A stretch of 62,948 nucleotides of DNA, the filler included, from Licmophora abbreviata (lineage: Eukaryota), in NCBI GenBank assembly GCA_900291995.1. It is 17 parts of 17 records of this genome, joined end to end, with 100 filler letters (N's around TTAATTAATTAA, not from the genome) between each part and the next. Parts side by side here need not be neighbours in the genome. Positions count along the whole stretch, not along the records: positions 17,142 to 21,910 come from OLMU01003444.1; positions 22,011 to 28,130 come from OLMU01003445.1; 15 more parts are not named here. One strand, given 5' to 3'. Shown here piece after piece: positions 12,767 to 45,187 of this stretch. The notes beneath the pieces are model-generated. The model ran no database searches, had not been told where the DNA came from, and saw only the letters and a program-made list of their open reading frames with translations. Within the stretch, counting starts at the first letter, position 1. Each line of letters opens with the position of its first letter. The position numbers were made by a program, and so were the translations under genes.

Positions 12767-13246
12767 AGGACGATCGTGCAGTTGAAGTATGGTGTACTGC
12801 ACAAGACGATAGACCTTATGAATAGGAAGCGACATAGAATCTATCTTCGTATTGTGTATAAAGTAGTTCCTGAAGAAGATGCTTTCGTCGTATTGATAGT
12901 GACGGCGTAGCTACTACTCAATTGGGTCGGGGTGACGAGACCTTGCGTCAAGTCTAGTCTCCAAACTCAGCACTACCGCATCGCAAAGCAGTACTTTTGG
13001 CAAGTTAATTCCGGATTTGACACTCTGCCTAACGTGGAGAAGACGGCGTCGTGAGCGTGTAACGATTTGTGTTGCAGGTGCTATGTTGAATGTGGTGATG
13101 AGTGGCCATTCGGCGTTCAGTCCGTACTTCGTCAACCAATGACGATCGCGCCCGAATTTTGAATTTTGTGTTCTCAGTTTTGCTGCGTTGCTTGAGACCA
13201 TGACGATGACGGCGTTCCGGCCACCGGCGCTCTCTCCAGATCAATC

Positions 13247-14647
13247 ATGATGAAAGGAGCGACTGCGAATGCAACGGGCAGAGCATCCCCTGATGCGGTT
13301 GTCGATTTTTGTCTTAGCTCGGCGAGCAAGACGACATTCCTGAGCTCCACTCCCGCAAGACACACCACTACATGGGCCACGGCGACGAAGCGACTATTCT
13401 TGGCAACTCTGTGTATCGCTCTCTACCTCTACGTGGTTATCAATCGACCGCAACAGATACTGGAACGATATTTACAAGAATCTGTAGATCAGTCGCTGTG
13501 GTACCAGCTGAAGCAAGCAAGAGCGCCATCCCTTATCCTGTCGCATCGATACCTAGTGTTTGTTCCTTTTGGTCCAGGACAAGGGACAGGAAACATCATG
13601 CATGGATTGCTGGCTGCACATTTGCTGGGACTCGAATTTGATCGGATAGTCTGTGTCTCGTCGAATTACACAGAATTTCATTGGGCCTTTGAATGGACTC
13701 CTAGCATCAGCAACAACCACGCCTTGCAGGCGTGTCCAACTTTGCCGCAATACGACGAGACGCCAGATCACTCCAACACAATTGAACTCGTCAGTTACCG
13801 TCCACCGCCGCCGAATGAGCGTGTCTTACAGCAGCGACTTCTTTCCAATACGACGGTGCTCTATTACTTTGGCAATACTTATCCGCGATGGCCAGCGACC
13901 ATCCCGCGAGGCCTATTCTTCCAGTACTACCGACCGACAAGAGCGTTGCAAGCCTTGCTACCATCATCGTTGCCTTCCATCGTGGTGCATCTACGACAGG
14001 GCGACTCTTCTACCGATTCTCGCAAGGGACTGGACGAAGCCACGTTTCATGCCCTGGGGCGATACTTGCAGGAATACAATAGCGTCTCGTCGTCACGCAT
14101 GGATGACACGCATCCCTATCTGGTGACGAATCGCGTAGCATGGTACGAATGGTTCGCTACTCATTACGCCTGGCAACACCCTGACTGGCTGGTAGTGCGG
14201 CATTCAGCCTTTCATTCCACCTTGTGGGGGACGCGAGGCAGTGATGCCAGTCGTCGACCTGTCAGCCTTACGACGAAACACACCAATAAGACGAACGTAA
14301 ACGATTACGGGCAGGCACTCCAAATGTGGAGCGATTGGTACGTCTTGTTGAATGCACATTGCGTCGTACATACACATAGTGATTTCTCGCTGTCGGCCGT
14401 ACACTGGAACAATGTCAACAGTGCAACGATCGAGGGAGTCAACGTTAGTACGGGTCGACTGGAACTTGCAGAAGAGTTTTGGCGGCGTGACACAGACGAA
14501 CCACCACAAGATTACTTGGTCGATCGGAGTATGGAGCAACTACAAGTAAGTGAGCATGAACCCGATAGTCGATTGCCTACGCGAATACGAGATCTGTATC
14601 TTAGACAACAGGCGCGACGAAAGGCCGAGGATGCAGAAACACTGTAA
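13247..14647 (+). CDS. Type II membrane glycosyltransferase, fucosyltransferase-like (GT-B)
   Basis: Single N-terminal TM anchor. GQGTGNIMHG, VVHLRQGD and HSDFS correspond to the GxGN, HxRxGD and SxFS motifs of GDP-fucose transferases. Confidence 0.65.
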   Translation: MMKGATANATGRASPDAVVDFCLSSASKTTFLSSTPARHTTTWATATKRLFLATLCIALYLYVVINRPQQILERYLQESVDQSLWYQLKQARAPSLILSHRYLVFVPFGPGQGTGNIMHGLLAAHLLGLEFDRIVCVSSNYTEFHWAFEWTPSISNNHALQACPTLPQYDETPDHSNTIELVSYRPPPPNERVLQQRLLSNTTVLYYFGNTYPRWPATIPRGLFFQYYRPTRALQALLPSSLPSIVVHLRQGDSSTDSRKGLDEATFHALGRYLQEYNSVSSSRMDDTHPYLVTNRVAWYEWFATHYAWQHPDWLVVRHSAFHSTLWGTRGSDASRRPVSLTTKHTNKTNVNDYGQALQMWSDWYVLLNAHCVVHTHSDFSLSAVHWNNVNSATIEGVNVSTGRLELAEEFWRRDTDEPPQDYLVDRSMEQLQVSEHEPDSRLPTRIRDLYLRQQARRKAEDAETL

Positions 14648-17320: not shown

Positions 17321-18986
17321 TTACATGTCAAACATATGAGTCAGCGACTTCCCGTTCAGCAACTCCAGTAGAACCGTACCCACCACGCCCAAAATAGCGA
17401 CACGTCCATTGATACGTTCCTTATCGCGCAATCGTTCCACCGCAAACAAGTCGCCTTCCGCTCCGACGCCACCCACTCCCTCGCTAATGCGCTCATCAAT
17501 CGTCTTGAGATCGGCGTCCCCACAATTGTTGGCAACACACGCCTCCGTCACAGTCTGTGCCGGTTCTTGTAAAGCGTCCATGACCATATCGGCCATATCA
17601 TCAAGAAAAGCCTGATCTGTGTTGAGAGCAGGACATCGTCTCCAATTGCTAATGCCGCTTTCTTCTGCTAGTTCACGATATTCAATATCAATCTCTTCCA
17701 AGGTTTCAATATGCTCACTGACAAACGAAATGGGCACCACGACCAGATTCTTGACTCCCTTTTGTCCAAGCTCCGGCAACACATCGTCCGTGTAGGGTCG
17801 TAGCCATTCAATCGGACCGACGCGTGATTGATAACTCAAGTGAATCTTAACGTTGGGATCGTCTGGCAGCGCTGCACCGATCCGTTCTACACACTCTTCA
17901 ATCTGCCGTTGGTACGGATCACCGGCATCGATATAACTGCGAGGCACACCATGTGCAGAGAACAATATATGCTTTGTAGGACCCTTCGGCGACGCCATAC
18001 TCAATTCCTCATTGGTAAAGGAGTCTAGCTCGTGTTGAATCAGATTGGCCATGGCTTTCACGTATCCTGGCCGATCGTACCAACACGGGACGACGGTATG
18101 AACCAGCTTGTTGGGACCATACCAGTCGACGTTCTTGGCAAATTGTTCTTGCAAGACACGAAGAGAAGAGCCTGACGTCGAAATACTGAACTGAGGATAC
18201 AGCGGGACGATGACCAAGGCCTGGATAGCATCGTTCCGAATTTGGTCAAGCGCTTCCTCGGTAAAGGGATGCCAGTATCGCATGCCAATGTATGTGGACA
18301 CGTCGAGTCCATGTTTTGACTTGACCGTTTCGCGGAGCAAGTCCGCCTGGGCATTGGAATATTTGAGAATGGGAGACCCCCCACCGATGGATTCGTATGC
18401 AGCCCGCGAGTTTGGGGGCCCGACGCTTGGAGATGAACAAGGCAATGGCATTTTGCAAGGGAGCAAGAGGACCGGGCAAACGAATAATGTCGGGATCGGC
18501 AAAGAGATTGTACAAGAAGCCTGTGCGGTGACGAGAGTGAATGAATGAATGAATGGGGTGAGATTGACATCAGATAGAAAGGAGCAAAGTATCCTAGCTT
18601 GACACGAGCTAGATCAAGGCTCTCTATGATCTAACGTCGGCGGGACGATAGAACGACACCACATGAGCAAACGCACCTTCGACGTCTTCTCCAGTTTCTG
18701 GCCCTCCAAGATTCAGCAGAAGGACTCCAACCTTGAACTGCTCGTCCTCTTGCGACACCTCCGTCAAGCCAGCGGTGTCAATCGGCAGTGCCGTAGCCGC
18801 CAGATGCCGTCGTGTGACCTCCGTCCGACAAACATTCGATTGGGAGGGAATCCAGCCATTTTGAGCTATTCTTGGACTTCTTACGAACGCATTGACACAT
18901 AATGGCCCTATCGATGAAAAGAGGGAATAGATAAAGAGCACACAAGGCCTCCGTCTCGCCGTGATGGCCGCCGTCGCTTTCCCCAT
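17321..18986 (-). CDS. hemH: Plastid ferrochelatase with C-terminal CAB/LHC motif; intron 18521-18676; apparent +1 frameshift near 18411
   Basis: GVLLLNLGGPE, FLYNLFADPDII, IGGGSP, MRYWHP, LYPQFS, FSAHG, YQSRVGP, FVSEHIETLEEID. Tail ERINGRVAILG. VNAF presequence cleavage motif. Confidence 0.95.
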
Positions 18987-20456: not shown

Positions 20457-21101
20457 CTACGACATGATAGGTCCCTTCATCTGAGAAATGTAGGACTGGA
20501 GCATACTTCGCGATTGATCAAGTTTGGAAGATAGTGTCGAAGTCGGCACTGGAAAGATGGAACGCGTGCAAGAGTCGTCGCTTCCACCCAGCTGTTTCTG
20601 ACGACGAATAATCTCATTGCGACTCTCCTCGGAGCGTTTCATTGAAGAAGCGAGCTTCACAAGCGCTGCATCGATGTCAACAGTGGGGAGATCGGCAGTA
20701 AGCTGAGAACTCGTTACGAGTAGCTTAGGCGGTGGTACTGGACTCGTCGTCGTGCCTTCCATCTCGGTGGAGCGACGCTTGCGTCGACGCTGTTTGGGCG
20801 GAGAACGTCCCTTGCGATCGGCGATAGGTTCGGAGAGTGTGCTTGCGACAAATGCTTCTTCGTCGCTTGGTTCTTGAAGATTGCGTGGTGGAGTGAACAT
20901 GGCTGTAGGAGCCAGCGTGGAATCGACGGTATCTTTTGCAAAGAGAAGACCATCGAAGTCGTCCGCAATCTTGACTCCGTCCATCGCCGTATCGAAGACG
21001 CTGTCGTCGCAATCGTAGAACTTGGTGAGATCGAGCTGATTCGTTTCTTGGAGGATACTGGCGTCCATCATGGCGTTGTCAAACAAAGAAGTGTCGATCA
21101 T
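20457..21101 (-). CDS. Hypothetical disordered protein with basic NLS and LASSMKRSEESR helix
   Basis: Open ~214-aa ORF with an acidic N-terminus, KQRRRKRRS and two amphipathic C-terminal helices. No recognised domain. Confidence 0.6.
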   Translation of the reverse strand: MIDTSLFDNAMMDASILQETNQLDLTKFYDCDDSVFDTAMDGVKIADDFDGLLFAKDTVDSTLAPTAMFTPPRNLQEPSDEEAFVASTLSEPIADRKGRSPPKQRRRKRRSTEMEGTTTSPVPPPKLLVTSSQLTADLPTVDIDAALVKLASSMKRSEESRNEIIRRQKQLGGSDDSCTRSIFPVPTSTLSSKLDQSRSMLQSYISQMKGPIMS

Positions 21102-21735
21102 CGTGTCGCTTCTTCTCGGATGTCGTCGTGTTGTGGTTTGTGGCGGGTTTTGTGATGGAAGCACGCAAGATGCGTCCCATGCAAAATTTGAAATACAGAT
21201 TTATCCTTTGGGCCAGGGTATCCCCCAATCGTACTGAAGATACGTCAAAGTGCCGTAGAAAATTTCAACTCTGACCTTGCAGTCATTGTGACACACCTCA
21301 AAAGCCTCTGAAGCATAGGTACCGAGCAGAATGACTTTTCGGGGGCTATTATGATGATCTTGCTTGGGCCTGATTATGACTCTAGAGCTAATGACCGAAA
21401 CCAACGCCACTTTTTTACCCGACGGTGTCTCCGGGACTCGACCCATAAAAAGACCGAAAGCAAGAAGCAGACACTTGTATAATATACGATTACATACATA
21501 ATGACCCTGACTGGCATCCACAAGCGATTGTGTCCTTTGCCCCACTATAGCCCCAAGCTGCAATACAGGAACGTTTGATGCGGGACAATGATGGTGTCCG
21601 AGCAGAAAGCTACTGCTTACACTCCAGCGGTACTCTAGGCTAGCTATCGTTGGACTCGCCTATACGAAAACTAAGTCGACGCAGCGGCAGCCTACAACCA
21701 ATACAGTAGCTTGAGATAATCCATGGTTTAGCTTT

Positions 21736-24700
21736 TTAAGCAGCTATCTTGCCATGTTGCTTCCCTTTTGGTTTGCTTTTCCGAATTGTATCAGTCTTCC
21801 ACTTGCCTTCGTTCTTTCGTGCCGACTCTATGGAACGCGCTGCTCCGTAAGTATCCTCCCCACCTGAATGCCATGGATTCGCGTTGTTCCCATTTTTGTC
21901 TACTAACTTGNNNNNNNNNNNNNNNNNNNNNNNNNNNNNNNNNNNNNNNNNNNNTTAATTAATTAANNNNNNNNNNNNNNNNNNNNNNNNNNNNNNNNNN
22001 NNNNNNNNNNCGTTGTTCCCATTTTTGTCTACTAACTTGCCCCAGCGATTGCGCTTTGTTTCCTTGACTCGCAGTTCGACCGGCCCATGAGCAAAGACGC
22101 ACTTATTCTTTCGTCGCATCGGACAGAAGGTCCCTTCACTAACGTCCCAGTGATTACACAATCTCGTGCGAAATTTGGGATCCTCTGCGCAACGTTTCAC
22201 ACTATTGTCTTTCTTGCAAATGCTTGCCCCTGTGCGTCGTATCCACTCGTCATCTGATCGGATCCAACCTCTGCAGTTGAAGGTTTTGGCAGCTGCACTG
22301 CCTTCCCATATCACGATGTCTTCTGGAGCCACGTCTGCCGTTGTTGTGGTATCTACAAGGAATGCGGCCCGTTCTTTCGTTAACGCTTCGGCCGTGGAAA
22401 GACATTCAATCTCGTCGGATTCTTGAGTTTCAACCCCACCACCAACCTGTGGAATCTCCCACTCTGTAGAAAGCGTGGTTGCGTTCTCGTCAGGTATGTC
22501 CTTCGAGACGAGAGGCGACACAGCAGAGATCCCCACTGAACCCAGCGGCGTCTCTGGTTGAACTCGAGAGATTCTAGACTGGTCAATGAGTTCCTGGGGC
22601 TCCTCATCGACACTGATACTTGAAGTTTTCATGTGTCGCTTACCGTCAGTCGGAATACTATACTTGGCGGCGATGGGGTCGTCGGCTGTCGTAAACTCGC
22701 AGCAGATCGTGTAACAATGTAGCACAAGACGGGGAAATTGTGCTTCGAAATACGGCATCAGACCATCTGGGTTTGATCCAGTTCGATCCTTCACGCTACT
22801 GGGCAATTCATCGTAGTGATGATGCTTATTCCGTATCAATCGGAGACAGTCGCGAATTGAAGACGGGTCATACGTTCGGAAACGTGAGACATTGTCGAGC
22901 AAGTCGTCGTCGAGCTTCTTGTCCCAGGCGATACCGACGACCTGAGCGGCATTGCGTTCAATGACCAGTGAGTTTCCACTGAGGGGCAGGCCTTGCCCAG
23001 GATCTAGGTCAGCCCCTGATTCCAGTCGATCGGAAACGTCGCATAGAAACGCTAGTCGTCGATGCGCGCTCCAGAAGAATGGATGGTTGCAGACCTGCTC
23101 CGCTGTGGGGCGTGCTTTTGGAGCACGTTGGATCATTGAGGATACCAAGTGATGCGCATCCGGAGAGATCTTACTGAGGTCATCAATACAGGGATTGTTT
23201 TTCATTATGTTTGCTTCTCGTTCGTACCAGTCACCAAACGGATGCGTCCCTGGCACAAGAAAGCAGTAAAAAATACACCCCAGAGAGAATATGTCGGAAG
23301 ATCGACTCGTCCGTGTACTTGCGGCCGCGTCCAATGGCGAGGCATCAGCGAAAGAGTCTTGGCCTTGTGAGCTGCCTTCGGAAGGAGTGGAGCTTACATC
23401 GAGTGTCCATCGCTGTACCATGACTTCAGGAGCTTGCCAGCCGACGCTACCAGGGCCAGCACCGCCAAGAGTCGATCCGCCAGCGTTTGATACACCTGTC
23501 AGGGATGCATTCCCTAAAGTGCTCAAGCCAAAGCTACTCTGTCCTGCCAACTGCTTGCCAAGGCCCATATCAGAAATCTTGGCAATATAGTGGCCATTCT
23601 CAAAGTGTGCGTATATGCACTCATCGTTTTGTTCGCTGGAGTCTCGTCTTCCCAGCTCCTTTCGCTTCGTGCTGGACTTGGCCAAAAGAATATTGGCAGG
23701 CTTCAAGTCTCGATGTACAATACGCAGTCCATGAATATGTCTGATCCCAGAAGCGATCTGCAACAGCGTCGATCGCACTGCGTCCTTCGCAATGTCATGT
23801 TCACTGTGAAGACTTAATCTCCCGATCAGATCGTGTAGCGACAAGTCGCACAGCTCTAATGCCAAATATACAAAGTCGCCTCGGACCTCCTTGAGGAAGT
23901 AGCGAACGACATTTGGGTGTCCGTCACTTTCGATGAGAAGAGAAATCTCGCGATCGGCGCTTGCATGGTACGTCTTGAGCATTCTCTTGACAGCAACCAT
24001 TCGACCCTCCAACATGCCTCTGTAAACAACCGTCCCATGTCCTCCATAACCAAGGACTTCTTCCGTGACCTGTATCACGCCAACATCTCGGATAACCGCC
24101 CCGGAGCTGTCTAGTGATAGCATTTTGCTTGTTGCATCTTCAAGGCGACCGGCAACCGTTTGTCGGTTTTGACGCTGGCGTCTTCCAAGCTCAAATGATA
24201 AGAAAAACAGCAGTATCATTGTTGAGGGAAGCCATGACGCCATGATACGAAAGAACGCTCGCGATTTCTTTCGATTCTGCAAGTCCTGCATATCTTCCTG
24301 CGCAACGTAACCAAGTTGCGGATGGTATTGAATGGTGACTGCGCCATTCTGATTGAGGGCAAGTGCATTTTCGCCTCCGAGAAAAGACTCTTGTTGTGAC
24401 CGCCCCCCTAAGAGGTCAAGATTGTGAAAGGGACCCACGAGACAACCTGGGAAACCAGGGCTTGTCGGGTTGCAAGTTCGTTTTCGCTTGTCAGCGCCAG
24501 CACGCGAGTGGGCTGAGACATCCTGGACGTGAGATGAAGCGTGTCGACCAGCCAAAGCGGCAACATCAGTATGCATTGTCGACACGAGAGCCGATGACGA
24601 GGATGCTGCTGCGGTGTGTTGGTGCGGCAGGCCCAGCGGATGGGTGTGCTTGGAGGCTCGACTGATATCTCGTCTTCCAAGAGGCATGGCGTACAGCTGA

Positions 24701-26001
24701 CCAGTAGACAGGGCGTTGACAATCGTCCGCGGCCCGCTCTCATCCGGATGATCACGGAACTCCTTAATCTGTCTCTCAAGTTCTTGTGACAGGTACTCCG
24801 CCGACCCACTCGGAACTGTAGCGTCAGGAAGGATTTCGACCCCAAGAGACGCACCCGACGACGAGTCCACCGCAAACGCCACCGGCGTGTCGAACGCCTC
24901 TTCAGCTACCCAACGAATCTGTCCCGTCTCCGGATCGCGCATGGCAACGTTTCCACTCGGCGTTGCTATCAGTAGCGACGACTTGGATGCGGCAGCGAAA
25001 GAGTTTGAGTTACCAGCCGTTGGTAACAAGAGTGTCGTCGCGAGTTGCTGACCGGCAGAGTGAGACCCGCTTCCCGTCATCATGTCATTAACGCTCATGA
25101 CTTCCGCAGAAGAAAATTCGACATCTGAATCACCACTTCGGGCGTCGTATAAAGATACTGAGTAGTCGACCCTTCCCAGCCAAACGACGTTTCGTCCATC
25201 CAAAGTGGTCTTGTCCATACTCTCAGTTTGTTCTGGCGACACTATACGTAGGATCTCCCCCGTCTCGCTATCCAGCGCAGCAGCTGTTGAATGTCTAGAT
25301 CCGACATAGAAGCGCCCTCTTGCGTCGACGAAAGGCGCTCTCGCGACCAGTTCTTGTACGGTTGTGCTCGCAGATAGGTCTTTTGGCGATGTGCCACTCA
25401 TTTCTCCTCGCCCAGCCGTAAGATAAACCCTGCCGTCTACACTGGGGACAGCCGCTGTTCTCCACTCCTGGCTGCTTGAAGTAGATTTTATCGTAGTTGT
25501 TGTCGACACTAGAGGACTCAAAAGACGACTATCACTCTCATTGTCGAAAGGGTGGCTTGCCCGATGATCTTTCGATGACTGAGGCCTCATGTAATCGCTC
25601 TTCTTTTCATGCTCAGCGCACTCGTCCGACGTATTCACTCGTTGTGACTTGCTCTGCTGTTTCCAAAGCGTCTCCCCAGTCCTTCTGGACAGCCCCGCCA
25701 GCGTCCCATCGACCGTCGCGACAACGATCACGTGTTCGTCGTCAGGACTCCTTCGTTTCGAATCGCCCCGCCAGTTCTGCGCCAAGTCTTCCAATTCTAC
25801 AGATTCGTCCGATTGCTCTGGCAAATTCAATTGTTCCTGTACACCATGATTCGGGGAAGTAGCGACGGCGTGACAAGTCTCAATCTTTCTGTGAGAAATT
25901 GCCAAACTGACCAGCATCCAAGTGTTGATCCAGAGAGCTCGACGCAGCGACCGTCGAGTTCCCGACTCCCTCATTGTCACTTTGTTTTGGTCGCTTTCCA
26001 T
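21736..26001 (-). CDS. IRE1: IRE1 ER-stress sensor (luminal domain, TM, kinase, KEN RNase) with C-terminal CCCH zinc finger; spans spacer 21911-22010
   Basis: Luminal VATVDGTL...TGETLWK. TM WLPSTMILLFFLSF. Kinase LGYGGHGTVVY, SDGHPNVVRY, HRDLKPANIL, SDMGL, WQAPE. KEN DCLRLIRNKHHHY. Contig ends overlap (KLVDKNGNN), so the frame continues to TAA at 21736. Confidence 0.95.
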
Positions 26002-33916: not shown

Positions 33917-34226
33917 GATCGCGTACAGGTAGAGTAGCGCACAGTACGACTGGACAAGGCGCTGATGCCTTTCGATGGCAGATCGTCAACATCGCACCAT
34001 GGTTGTGCGTCGAATACCGTCGTCGCGAAAATGTGACCCAACACTTGTGTGTACATCTTCGTACGATTTCTACTCAGACGAGCTCCAATCACGACGGAAA
34101 TCAACTGGAGCTCTCGGTCTGGTTTGAGTACCTTTTCGCGATCAACATGATGGGCGTCGAAAGAGAGTGGCGGCCTTCGTTTCCACAATACCGATCACCT
34201 TACTCAAGATATCATTGAACGTTACG

Positions 34227-35261
34227 ATGAAGTTCCTTCCTCAGTCGACCGCTGTGCTTCTCGTCCTACTAATATCCCCTTCACTCGCAAGTGGTTCGAA
34301 TCTACGTTCTGGCAATGCATTGAGCAACAAACTTCTTCGCCATGCCGTATCCGAATGGCTGAGCAATCGAACGAGCGCAATCCAAACATATGGTCACATA
34401 TCGTTTTGGGATGTTTCTCGAGTCACCGACTTCTCCCGTTTGTTCATCGGCATGTCAGAGTTTGACGAGGACTTGTCCGCTTGGAACATGCGCAAGGCAC
34501 AGGACACAAGCCATATGTTCAAGGGAGCGTTGTTATTTAAGAGTGACTTATCCAAGTGGAATACAGCCAATGTCCGAGACATGAGCCACATGTTTCACGA
34601 CGCTGCATCCTTCACAAGCGATCTGTCCGCCTGGAATACCGACAAGGTGTTTGATTTTTCGTACATGTTTTCCGGTGCCACACTGTTCGATGGAGATGTC
34701 TCAACATGGGACGTAACGAACTCGCACACTCTCAAGTATATGTTTTTCAATGCAACAAGTTTTCGTGGGGACGTATCGCGGTGGACCATTCCTAAAAAGA
34801 AGGAAAGTAGTGAGCCGGTGACAGGGATTCAATACAGATGGGCGCAAAACATGAGATCGATGTTTGAGGGAGCAGTTTTATTCAACAGCGATCTTTCTCA
34901 ATGGGAGACATGGTCGACCTACAATATGAATTCCATGTTCAAGGATGCATCGAGCTTCACAGGCGGTGAGGATGGTTCCCTTTCAGGATGGAATGTGAAA
35001 CACGTGGAAGATTTCCGGGAAATGTTTGTCGGGTCAAGGTTTGACCAAGAGCTATGTTGGACTGTAAAGTCGGATTCCAATACAACTGGGATGTTCGACG
35101 AGGCCGGTGGGGCACTGCGATCGGAATGTCAGACGATCCGACACACCGGCGATGACGGGCAAAAATGGCCACAGGAATCATCGGAGGCTGCAAGCCCAAT
35201 GTCTGCGGCGCTTTTAATGTGCGTTGTGGCTACCCTTGGGCTCGTAGCTAGCATCGTGTAA
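34227..35261 (+). CDS. Secreted/surface DUF285-type (BspA-like) repeat protein with hydrophobic C-terminal anchor
   Basis: Signal peptide. ~25-aa repeats of the type DLSxWNTxNVxDMSxMF. YGHISFWDVSRVTD cap. C-terminal hydrophobic tail. No introns. Confidence 0.85.
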   Translation: MKFLPQSTAVLLVLLISPSLASGSNLRSGNALSNKLLRHAVSEWLSNRTSAIQTYGHISFWDVSRVTDFSRLFIGMSEFDEDLSAWNMRKAQDTSHMFKGALLFKSDLSKWNTANVRDMSHMFHDAASFTSDLSAWNTDKVFDFSYMFSGATLFDGDVSTWDVTNSHTLKYMFFNATSFRGDVSRWTIPKKKESSEPVTGIQYRWAQNMRSMFEGAVLFNSDLSQWETWSTYNMNSMFKDASSFTGGEDGSLSGWNVKHVEDFREMFVGSRFDQELCWTVKSDSNTTGMFDEAGGALRSECQTIRHTGDDGQKWPQESSEAASPMSAALLMCVVATLGLVASIV

Positions 35262-36700: not shown

Positions 36701-38362
36701 CTAGTCCGTAAGCTCAAACTGCACTCCAAGCTTAATCTTTTCAGCCTGCTCTGCAATTTGCGCTACCGCCACAGCCTTCGTCGCAGCATCCTCCAAGTCG
36801 CTCGCCAGAATCATTCGGTATCCGCAACTCTCAATCAACATTTTGGCTTGATCGACATTGGTTCCCTGCAAACGGATCACAATGGGCTTGCGAATACCGA
36901 TCTCTTTCGCCGCATTGATGATTCCGTTGGCAATAATGTCGCAACGCATGATACCGCCAAAAATATTGACGAGAATAGCCTTGACATTGTCGTCGCTGTT
37001 CAAGATCTCAAACGCTTTCTGAACCTGCTTCTCATTGGCACCGCCGCCGACATCCAGAAAGTTCGCTGGCGAGCCACCCTTGAGCTGAATAATGTCCATG
37101 GTGGACATGGCAAGTCCAGCTCCGTTCACCATGCATCCGATGGATCCATCGAGTCCAATGTAGTTGAGATCGTACTTGGAGGCTTCGACTTCACGAGGGT
37201 CTTCTTGGGTGTAGTCGCGTCGCTCAAAGATGGTCGACTGACGAAACTCGGCGTTGTCATCAAAGTTGACCTTGGCATCGCAGACCACGACATCGCCGTC
37301 GGGCGTTTCGGCAAGCGGGTTGACTTCGACTTGTGTGCAGTCGCACCCCTCAAACATATTGTACAAGTGCTTCATAAGGTCAATTGCCTTGTTGTACGGG
37401 CTACTACCAGGTTCCAATCCGAGGTTAGCAGCCATGCGTTCGCACTGCTCATGCTGCAATCCTTCGATAATGTCGATTGGTTCAGTAAAGATAACTTCGG
37501 GGTTAGTTTCAGCAACGTCTTCAATGGNNNNNNNNNNNNNNNNNNNNNNNNNNNNNNNNNNNNNNNNNNNNTTAATTAATTAANNNNNNNNNNNNNNNNN
37601 NNNNNNNNNNNNNNNNNNNNNNNNNNNAAAGATAACTTCGGGGTTAGTTTCAGCAACGTCTTCAATGGAAGTTCCGCCACGAGGACTGGCCACCATGAGG
37701 GGTCCCTGACTGGCGCGATCCATGAGAATAGAAAGGTACATTTCGCGACGCATGTACATGCGCTCCATCAAGTAGACCTTTCCACAATGAATTCCATTGG
37801 GAGCTTGCTTGGTGATAAGGTCTTCGCCGAGCATCTGGGAGGCGTAGTCGCGCGCTTGGCCCTCCTTGGTGACCATGTGGACTCCGCCCTTGAAACCATT
37901 CTTAAATGTTCCGAGTCCCCGTCCGCCCGACAAGACCTGTGCCTTGATGACGACGTCCTTGCGGTTCTTTGGATCTGTCAGCAGAAAATGAGGCAGGGGG
38001 CAGTTATGAGAGGGCGACTGCACACTGGTGCTGGACACATAGCGAGCGTCAACAGCGTCGCTGATAGAGATGCCGTCGTATCCAGAATTCTAGAACCTGA
38101 AATCAGCAGCACGCAATTTTCATTCTACTTCACACTCATAATCGTCGATAGAGCACTCACCATGATTCAGCTGATGCATGTAAATGTTCTCCGCTTCCTC
38201 TGGATTGGTCGCGACGTATCCTTCGGGCGTGGCAATCTTGTGATTATTCATAATTTCCATGGAAATGTACTCGTGGACATTGAGGTTTCGGACAGCGCCC
38301 AGAGCCGGAATGGACGTCCGGCGAGCCACCAGTTTAGTAGCAGTCTTCAAGGAAGATAACAT
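36701..38362 (-). CDS. Mitochondrial succinyl-CoA synthetase beta subunit; intron 37975-38160; spans spacer with overlapping ends
   Basis: RNLNVHEY, VIKAQVLSGGRG, EVNPL, DAKVNFDDNAEFRQ, GCMVNGAGLAM, ANFLDVGGGA, VNIFGGI. Confidence 0.96.
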
Positions 38363-43822: not shown

Positions 43823-45187
43823 ATGAGATGGAATCGCGATAAATCTCTCCGTCTGAGCGCTGCCGCGCTGCGTACAGTCGGTGGGTCAAGGATACGAGGC
43901 GACAGCAGACTCATCCTGTCACCAAAGCAGCATTCGTCTCCGTCTCCCGCCACCGCTACAACGGTGGAAGGAGACGCCCCGAGAGACCGGTGGCGAGCGG
44001 GCGACCTTTCGACTCCGCCAAGGCCGATTTTCCCTTGGCGGCATGATCCGAACCCACTGCCTCGTCTTGTGGGAGAACACGCAAAGCGAGGGGGCATACT
44101 GGGACCTGATCATCCGATTCTATCTCCAACAGAAACAACGGTGATATCGGCCATTTGCTCGCAATTTTGTGGTTATCTTCTTAATATCCCATGGTATGAG
44201 CGCTTGCTTACCTCGGGCTGGAAACAAGAGTTGGCGGAAGCAAGTGGGTGGGCGTTTGCCCAGGCTGTCGCAGGAGTGTTGTCTAATACGTACCGAGGTG
44301 AGTTTGACTCAATTGAGACAAGAGAGACATGATTTGAAGACACGTCAGTCTCTTACAGCATACAATTTGTCGCTCCAGTCCCCTTTGACGGCATCATGAA
44401 GAACGCCGACACAGAGAAAGATGCCGACTTGCAAAACTCTGTCAATTTCGAGCACACAACAAGCGCTCGAAAGCTGGAAGACGCAAACGCTCCATTTCCA
44501 CAAGCAGACAACATGATGGAGGAGAAGCTCATCAGCTTGTACGAAGCGGCACATGATTCGGGCAAGGAGCAGATGCTCATTCAGCTACTGACCAGACCGG
44601 TTTCGTCGCGACTTGTCAGTCTTTACCCGATTCCCTGCCTGACACGCAAAACTGTGAAGGAAAATCCTGCTCTTCAGCGTACGTATCACAATATNNNNNN
44701 NNNNNNNNNNNNNNNNNNNNNNNNNNNNNNNNNNNNNNTTAATTAATTAANNNNNNNNNNNNNNNNNNNNNNNNNNNNNNNNNNNNNNNNNNNNTATCAC
44801 AATATGCTATCTCAGTTGCAAGAAAAAGAAGAGGAACTAGGACGCGTGCTCAGCCACGTGGAAATAAGTCAATTTGTATCATATCGAATGATGGATCTAG
44901 CGAGAGAGCGGTTCGAGTTGCACCCCGACGGCTATGGACTGCTTGAGCATACGATAGTAGCACAGGTACTTGTGCACTGTGATGAAGTGTTTGGCGTAAA
45001 AGATCTCTTGACAGATAAGATGGTGCAGGGCGACGGCCTCCGACGAATCGTGCCACATCTGATACGCCTCGAAATGGATGGCCAGTCGCGATTCGAGCGT
45101 TCAAGATCATCAGCGACGCACCACCTGGGCTCGTGGATCATAACAGATTGGGACGATTTGCTAGGGGGTAACGTATGGCTCGGATAG
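43823..45187 (+). CDS. Putative mitochondrial protein with possible Tim44-like C-terminal domain; intron 44298-44378; spans spacer 44695-44794
   Basis: Arg-rich presequence. GTGAGT...CCAG intron joins ORFs 43823 and 44396. Contig ends overlap (tatcacaata). C-terminal AQVLVHCDEVF...H..RLE...WIITDWD resembles Tim44-type folds (inference). Confidence 0.6.

Follow-up and report, generated by a model that had tools for sequence, protein, structure and literature searches.

Does the IRE1 of a diatom carry, behind its RNase, a domain with which it could read RNA? The question is raised by a gene of Licmophora abbreviata in a window of 62,948 nucleotides (assembly GCA_900291995.1, 17 parts joined end to end by spacers), for which a reading made from the sequence alone had proposed an IRE1 fused at its C-terminus to a TTP-like CCCH zinc finger. 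The features of the gene are summarized in Table 1. The protein is an IRE1 by its domains: the luminal sensor, a single transmembrane helix, the Ser/Thr kinase and the KEN RNase are all present, in that order, and the kinase has the motifs VAVK and HRDLKPAN. Its DFG motif is DMG (23571-23563, minus strand), which is invariant in a 117-sequence alignment; plant IRE1 kinases likewise have DMG for DFG. The minus-strand frame stays open from 26043 to the spacer, and the Met at 26001 is assumed as the start, which is not established (the following Met is at 25974). In the organism's own genome (29.2 Mb in 7734 contigs) KEN has one match and the C-terminal module likewise one, both counts being lower bounds.

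The proposed fusion is confirmed, since the same frame runs from KEN through the linker into the finger on one contig (minus strand: IVIWEGS at 22317, KFRTRL at 22176, Cys at 22158, 22125 and 22101, His at 22089, then GPVELR). The linker is acidic as described but measures 125 aa, not about 100. The finger has the claimed spacing C-x10-C-x7-C-x3-H, and its lead-in is K[FY]R[TS]RLC rather than YKTxLC. A spacer (21911-22010, TTAATTAATTAA in its middle, identical at all 16 gaps of the window) interrupts the coding sequence behind the finger. Its flanks share an exact 29-nt overlap, and when this is collapsed the frame closes and runs to a TAA at 21736-21738, 67 aa beyond HGPVELR. The distance from RWG to SGGED after the collapse is 14 residues, the same as in 235 of 235 homologues. 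The conserved unit is about 130 aa long, includes the part beyond the gap, and is more than the finger alone. A look at expression in two runs yielded a single piece of 263 nt (22970-23232), which leaves the module uncovered and has no bearing either way.

Table 1. Features of the Licmophora abbreviata IRE1 gene, in window coordinates
Feature	Position	Strand	Basis or remark
IRE1 gene	21736..26001	-	single open frame, no intron required; ~1378 aa from Met at 26001
ER-luminal sensor domain (bounds approximate)	24673..25740	-	PQQ_2 E 2.6e-9; mean identity 0.34 to homologues
Transmembrane helix, then juxtamembrane GRRxR	24190..24246	-	hydrophobic stretch in translation; column profile
Ser/Thr kinase domain	23068..24081	-	Pkinase E 3.8e-35; GxGxxG, VAVK, HRDLKPxN, DMG
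KEN RNase domain	22690..23058	-	PF06479 E 9.2e-32; RNKHHH at 22833
Acidic linker, unconserved, 125 aa	22318..22692	-	mean identity 0.07; 25 D/E, 9 K/R
Pre-finger subdomain IxWxGS...RGWxR...W, Trp-rich, no known family	22177..22317	-	mean identity 0.59; pLDDT 79-90 in first half
Single CCCH finger C-x10-C-x7-C-x3-H, K[FY]R[TS]RL lead-in, FAHGPxELR tail	22069..22176	-	mean identity 0.87; pLDDT 92-93
Post-finger conserved segment RWG...SGGEDTYGAARSIE...GKW, split by spacer	21799..22068	-	predicted helix at end
Artificial 100-nt scaffold spacer	21911..22010		flanks overlap by 29 nt
Variable basic 20-aa tail and TAA stop	21736..21798	-	7 K/R of 20

Elsewhere in the window, the flanks of the spacers at 37528-37627 and 44695-44794 also overlap exactly, by 41 and 11 nt, and genes at these two places may therefore be falsely split. 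A ferrochelatase (17321-18613, minus strand) ends in a chlorophyll a/b-binding motif that scores 22.2 bits against a Pfam cut-off of 22.3; plastid-type ferrochelatases are known to carry such a motif. Two long open frames of 247 and 483 aa (20457-21200, minus strand; 13196-14647, plus strand) have no Pfam match, and a DUF285 repeat protein is found at 34128-35261 on the plus strand (E 5.9e-65).

The module recurs in a large number of IRE1 proteins. With a 113-aa segment as query, 140 of 174 candidates match at E<=0.001, and the 120 matches listed are 62-84% identical and all contain kinase and KEN, so the match is not due to chance; no CCCH family is annotated on any of these 120. Exactly one C-x10-C-x7-C-x3-H is present in each of 121 proteins, the window's included. 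A search among shorter proteins matched 231 of 275, and a profile run against 1.84 billion representatives matched 367 at E<=0.001 and 210 at 1e-10. Among the proteins collected, near-duplicates included, 379 of 403 score above 40 bits on the finger, KEN is present in all 270 matches whose finger lies at residue 400 or later, and by pattern the spacing is 10/7/3 in 343 of the 379 and 8/5 in none. From the end of KEN to the finger the median distance is 157 aa and the longest 341 aa (n=307).

Source names, which for the profile search cover the best 150 of the 367 matches, place module-bearing IRE1 in pennate and centric diatoms, Corethron, Triparma and Mallomonas annulata; a piece of only 144 aa from the brown alga Hapterophycus also contains the module, its length leaving no room to show the fusion. 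Most of the distant matches are unnamed, and many group with Mallomonas; in trees the window protein groups with diatoms. The range of these names, from pennate diatoms to Mallomonas and Hapterophycus, indicates its presence in two or more main branches of the ochrophytes. The combination of kinase, KEN and CCCH finger recurs in the orthologs of diatoms, Triparma and Mallomonas. Six MMETSP open reading frames marked complete (P0040, P0045, P0075, P0084, P0087 and P0111) each encode kinase, KEN and finger, and therefore the transcripts of those diatoms do not stop before it. A match labelled Alexandrium (P0110) adjoins Cyclotella in the tree and was treated as a likely contaminant. A stand-alone form of the module was considered and rejected: there are 72 matches without KEN, and in none of them does the finger begin further than 216 residues from the N-terminus, as would be expected of fragments. 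By these searches the module appears to occur only on IRE1. The fused protein would be the normal IRE1 of ochrophyte algae, on the basis of searches that started from the module and in which IRE1s without it could not appear.

Conservation is concentrated in the module and the catalytic domains. Averaged across 104 long homologues, identity to the window protein is 0.63 in the kinase, 0.55 in KEN and 0.07 in the linker, compared with 0.59 in the pre-finger part, 0.87 in the finger and 0.81 in the post-finger part. In the 117-sequence alignment, distant members included, at least 90% conservation is reached in 103 of 350 kinase columns, 32 of 131 in KEN, none of 105 in the linker, 43 of 132 in the module and 21 of 37 in the finger. 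Judged by these alignments the module seems at least as conserved as the RNase, with figures that are biased upward because the homologues were found through the module itself, and it appears to be under strong selection. The KEN motif RN..HH is kept in 99 of 105 long homologues. Among 298 distinct fingers of this spacing, all four ligand positions, the Phe and the AH pair are at 100%, though C, C, C, H and AH are already preset by the search pattern; along the tail the values are F 100%, G 95%, E 98%, L 99% and R 99%.

The 130 residues of the module include 27 K/R, 16 D/E and 7 Trp, and the finger region has 12 K/R to 4 D/E. An AlphaFold model built from 109 diverse sequences has a pLDDT of 76.2, rising to 92-93 in the finger, and a pTM of 0.48, so that the arrangement of the subdomains is unsure; one built earlier from 38 close sequences was of poor quality, with a pLDDT of 51. 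A complex prediction of kinase-KEN with the module, in which the alignment was not used, gave no answer (score 0.00). Structural searches matched no solved fold to the flanks of the finger. In the ESM Atlas the best score was 0.86, with all CCCH-type leads below 0.9, and KEN plus module gave no usable match. The pre-finger part is not a decayed second finger, since beyond the diatoms its Cys residues are not conserved.

What kind of finger is this? A profile of 24 distant members finds TTP first among solved structures (E 7.3e-6), followed by 9y10, POS-1, TIS11d, MEX-5 and Unkempt. With TTP/ZFP36/TIS11d (1m9o, 1rgo) and POS-1 (6nzl) it shares an aromatic-basic lead-in and the CxFAHG..ELR tail, and K[FY]R[TS]RL aligns with the (R/K)YKTEL of TTP, with Arg for Lys and for Glu. 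It differs in being fused to an enzyme, in being single, whereas fingers of the TTP/TIS11 family come two in tandem, and in two 2-residue insertions that turn the C-x8-C-x5-C-x3-H of TTP into C-x10-C-x7-C-x3-H. It also has Met (in 96% of the 298 fingers) where TTP has, after the second Cys, a Tyr that stacks on bases. Unkempt (5elh) resembles it in a non-standard long spacing and a similar tail, but has clusters of fingers and a RING domain where the ochrophyte module has one finger and no RING. The Unkempt model PF25427 matches weakly in 31 of the 38 members aligned, at 13-15 bits where its cut-off asks for 31.1, and no Pfam CCCH model reaches its cut-off on the ochrophyte finger, the best scores being these same 13-15 bits. 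The finger is best classed from its sequence as TIS11/Unkempt-like; with one finger, another spacing and Met for Tyr, it is not a member of the TTP family. The sequence-only reading saw a TTP/ZFP36-type finger; TTP, TIS11d, POS-1 and Unkempt are the nearest solved relatives, but the finger does not show what defines the TTP family. In the predicted structure the finger is modelled with confidence, and TIS11d and POS-1 are its best folds, though at E values of 0.42 and 1.7 (Z 2.5, rmsd 6.5 over 56 aligned residues) both matches are weak.

The architecture has a precedent in green algae. PMC11077094 describes at least one CCCH finger on the cytoplasmic side of green-algal IRE1, unlike land plants, suggests mRNA recruitment as its role and cites Yamaoka et al. 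2018 (Plant J 94:91) for it; a 2013 survey (PMC3710099) lists the pairing of KEN and kinase with the remark 'CCCH in some'. To take it that IRE1 stops soon after KEN is to overlook green algae, in which, as in Chlamydomonas CrIRE1, kinase and KEN are followed by a cytosolic CCCH finger in the same order as in the diatom; land-plant IRE1 has no finger. Both the IRE1-CCCH architecture and the idea of mRNA recruitment are thus already in print for green algae. For stramenopiles, literature searches whose coverage leaves out most subscription papers found no description of an IRE1 finger. New here are the range across ochrophytes, the module of 130 aa and a finger of a different type.

To compare the two we turn to metagenomes, where a KEN motif scan yielded 72 loci, 71 of them translated. 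A C-x8-C-x5-C-x3-H finger lies within 2.3 kb downstream of KEN in 37 of the 71, and these loci are presumably green algal. The 21 distinct green-type fingers have a P.RPG lead-in, in most cases K[FY]G after the second Cys, and an HP tail; the three tested all pass Pfam zf-CCCH. Green-type IRE1 thus carries one such finger, or two as in loci L042, L044 and L091, without a flanking module, while the ochrophyte finger sits inside 130 conserved residues and below all Pfam cut-offs. On green-type fingers the profile of the ochrophyte finger does not exceed 6.2 bits and those of its flanks do not exceed 0; in the other direction the green profile reaches no more than 3.9 bits on module-bearing proteins, compared with self-scores of 66-86. 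A kinase-KEN tree, which has no reliable root, parts 24 module-bearing from 17 green-type sequences (95/85). The different finger type, the lack of a flanking module and the low cross-scores suggest that the ochrophyte and green-algal fusions probably arose separately. A single old IRE1-finger fusion with later replacement of the finger is conceivable, and would agree with the fast divergence of short fingers and with the green-type finger also having TTP as its best solved match.

What might the module do? In yeast, according to PMC4279078, luminal clustering activates the kinase and KEN, and a basic [+]-box between the transmembrane helix and the kinase is needed to dock HAC1 mRNA before cleavage. 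Diatom IRE1 has the luminal sensor, transmembrane helix, kinase and KEN of the canonical IRE1 of yeast, animals and land plants, with intact motifs, but whereas the docking box of yeast lies before the kinase, the finger module of the diatom follows KEN; in the 117-sequence alignment the linker from the transmembrane helix to the kinase has no conserved basic box beyond GRRxR. The reading we prefer, with about even confidence, is that the module is a tethered mRNA-docking module made avid by the clustering of IRE1. The finger would bind zinc, and the module would bind single-stranded mRNA, weakly as a monomer; ER stress would cluster IRE1 so that many fingers act together, and target mRNAs would be held beside the KEN active sites for splicing or decay. 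The module would in this way do the job of the yeast [+]-box, a job also proposed for the green-algal finger. In favour of docking, the nearest solved sequences and folds are CCCH proteins that bind single-stranded RNA, and the module is basic; against it stand the one finger without a tandem partner, the Met for Tyr, the Pfam scores below cut-off, the weak fold matches and a search of 20 bZIP loci that found no twin-hairpin substrate.

It is somewhat unlikely, yet well worth weighing, that the module binds protein instead, recruiting a ligase, decay factors or the ribosome or translocon, or folding onto the kinase-RNase in autoregulation, with the finger mainly structural. For about 90 of the module's 130 conserved residues, those outside the finger, no relative is known, and these long flanks may therefore serve a protein partner; the seven Trp, the Met in the position of the TTP Tyr and the presence of an RtcB ligase gene in the genome (in two pieces on one contig) point the same way. 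The lead-in, the Phe and the FAHG..ELR tail of RNA-binding fingers are kept, however, and the tether is unconserved and so variable in length that it fits reach better than a fixed dock.

If mRNAs are docked by the module, a spliced bZIP transcript is one thing to look for. No twin CNGxxG hairpins turned up in any of 20 bZIP loci, whether the rules were strict or relaxed (0.9 expected in shuffles), and no Rfam family reached its gathering score in these loci. The assembly is in 7734 contigs, four loci have less than 650 nt to scan and one only 71, and the counts are lower bounds. One locus (L013) has, 321 nt after the bZIP match, a hairpin of IRE1 type with a CAGCAGC loop and a 5-bp stem, which lies beyond the first in-frame stop, has no partner hairpin and could be chance. 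A search of the genome for a Trl1-type ligase had no match anywhere and is uninformative. TTP-like fingers mark mRNA for decay, and the absence of twin hairpins and Rfam families would agree with a module that binds RNA for stress-independent surveillance and decay of ER-bound mRNA, with no splice of HAC1/XBP1 type and IRE1 mainly a finger-guided decay enzyme. We consider this improbable: RtcB is present, and the bZIP test is weak because of the hairpins expected by chance, the short loci and a Chlamydomonas IRE1 substrate that, according to PMC11077094, is without the full motif. An artefact is scarcely credible, be it read-through, a wrong join across the gap or a neighbouring gene of its own, for despite the scaffold spacer inside the module and the lack of RNA of this organism over it, finger and KEN share one contig and one frame, the collapse reproduces the spacing of the homologues, and these homologues, with the six complete MMETSP frames, already refute it.

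Returning to mRNA docking, a bolder version, which is doubtful on present sequences, would have ochrophytes separately gaining a 130-aa RNA-reading module that finds targets by sequence and not by twin hairpins, with an unfolded protein response (UPR) of finger-guided decay or of a novel splicing substrate. The way in which IRE1 reaches its mRNAs is understood only in part and varies among lineages, from the basic box of yeast to the stalling of ribosomes in animals and flowering plants; a conserved and separable module on what is apparently the sole IRE1 of diatoms is a clean handle on it. Current annotation misses the finger, with no CCCH family on at least 120 listed proteins. Our literature searches found no description of the UPR pathway in this major algal group, and what the module captures would name its UPR targets. 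Different CCCH fingers added at one position in two algal lineages would suggest that selection has favoured a built-in docking domain more than once.
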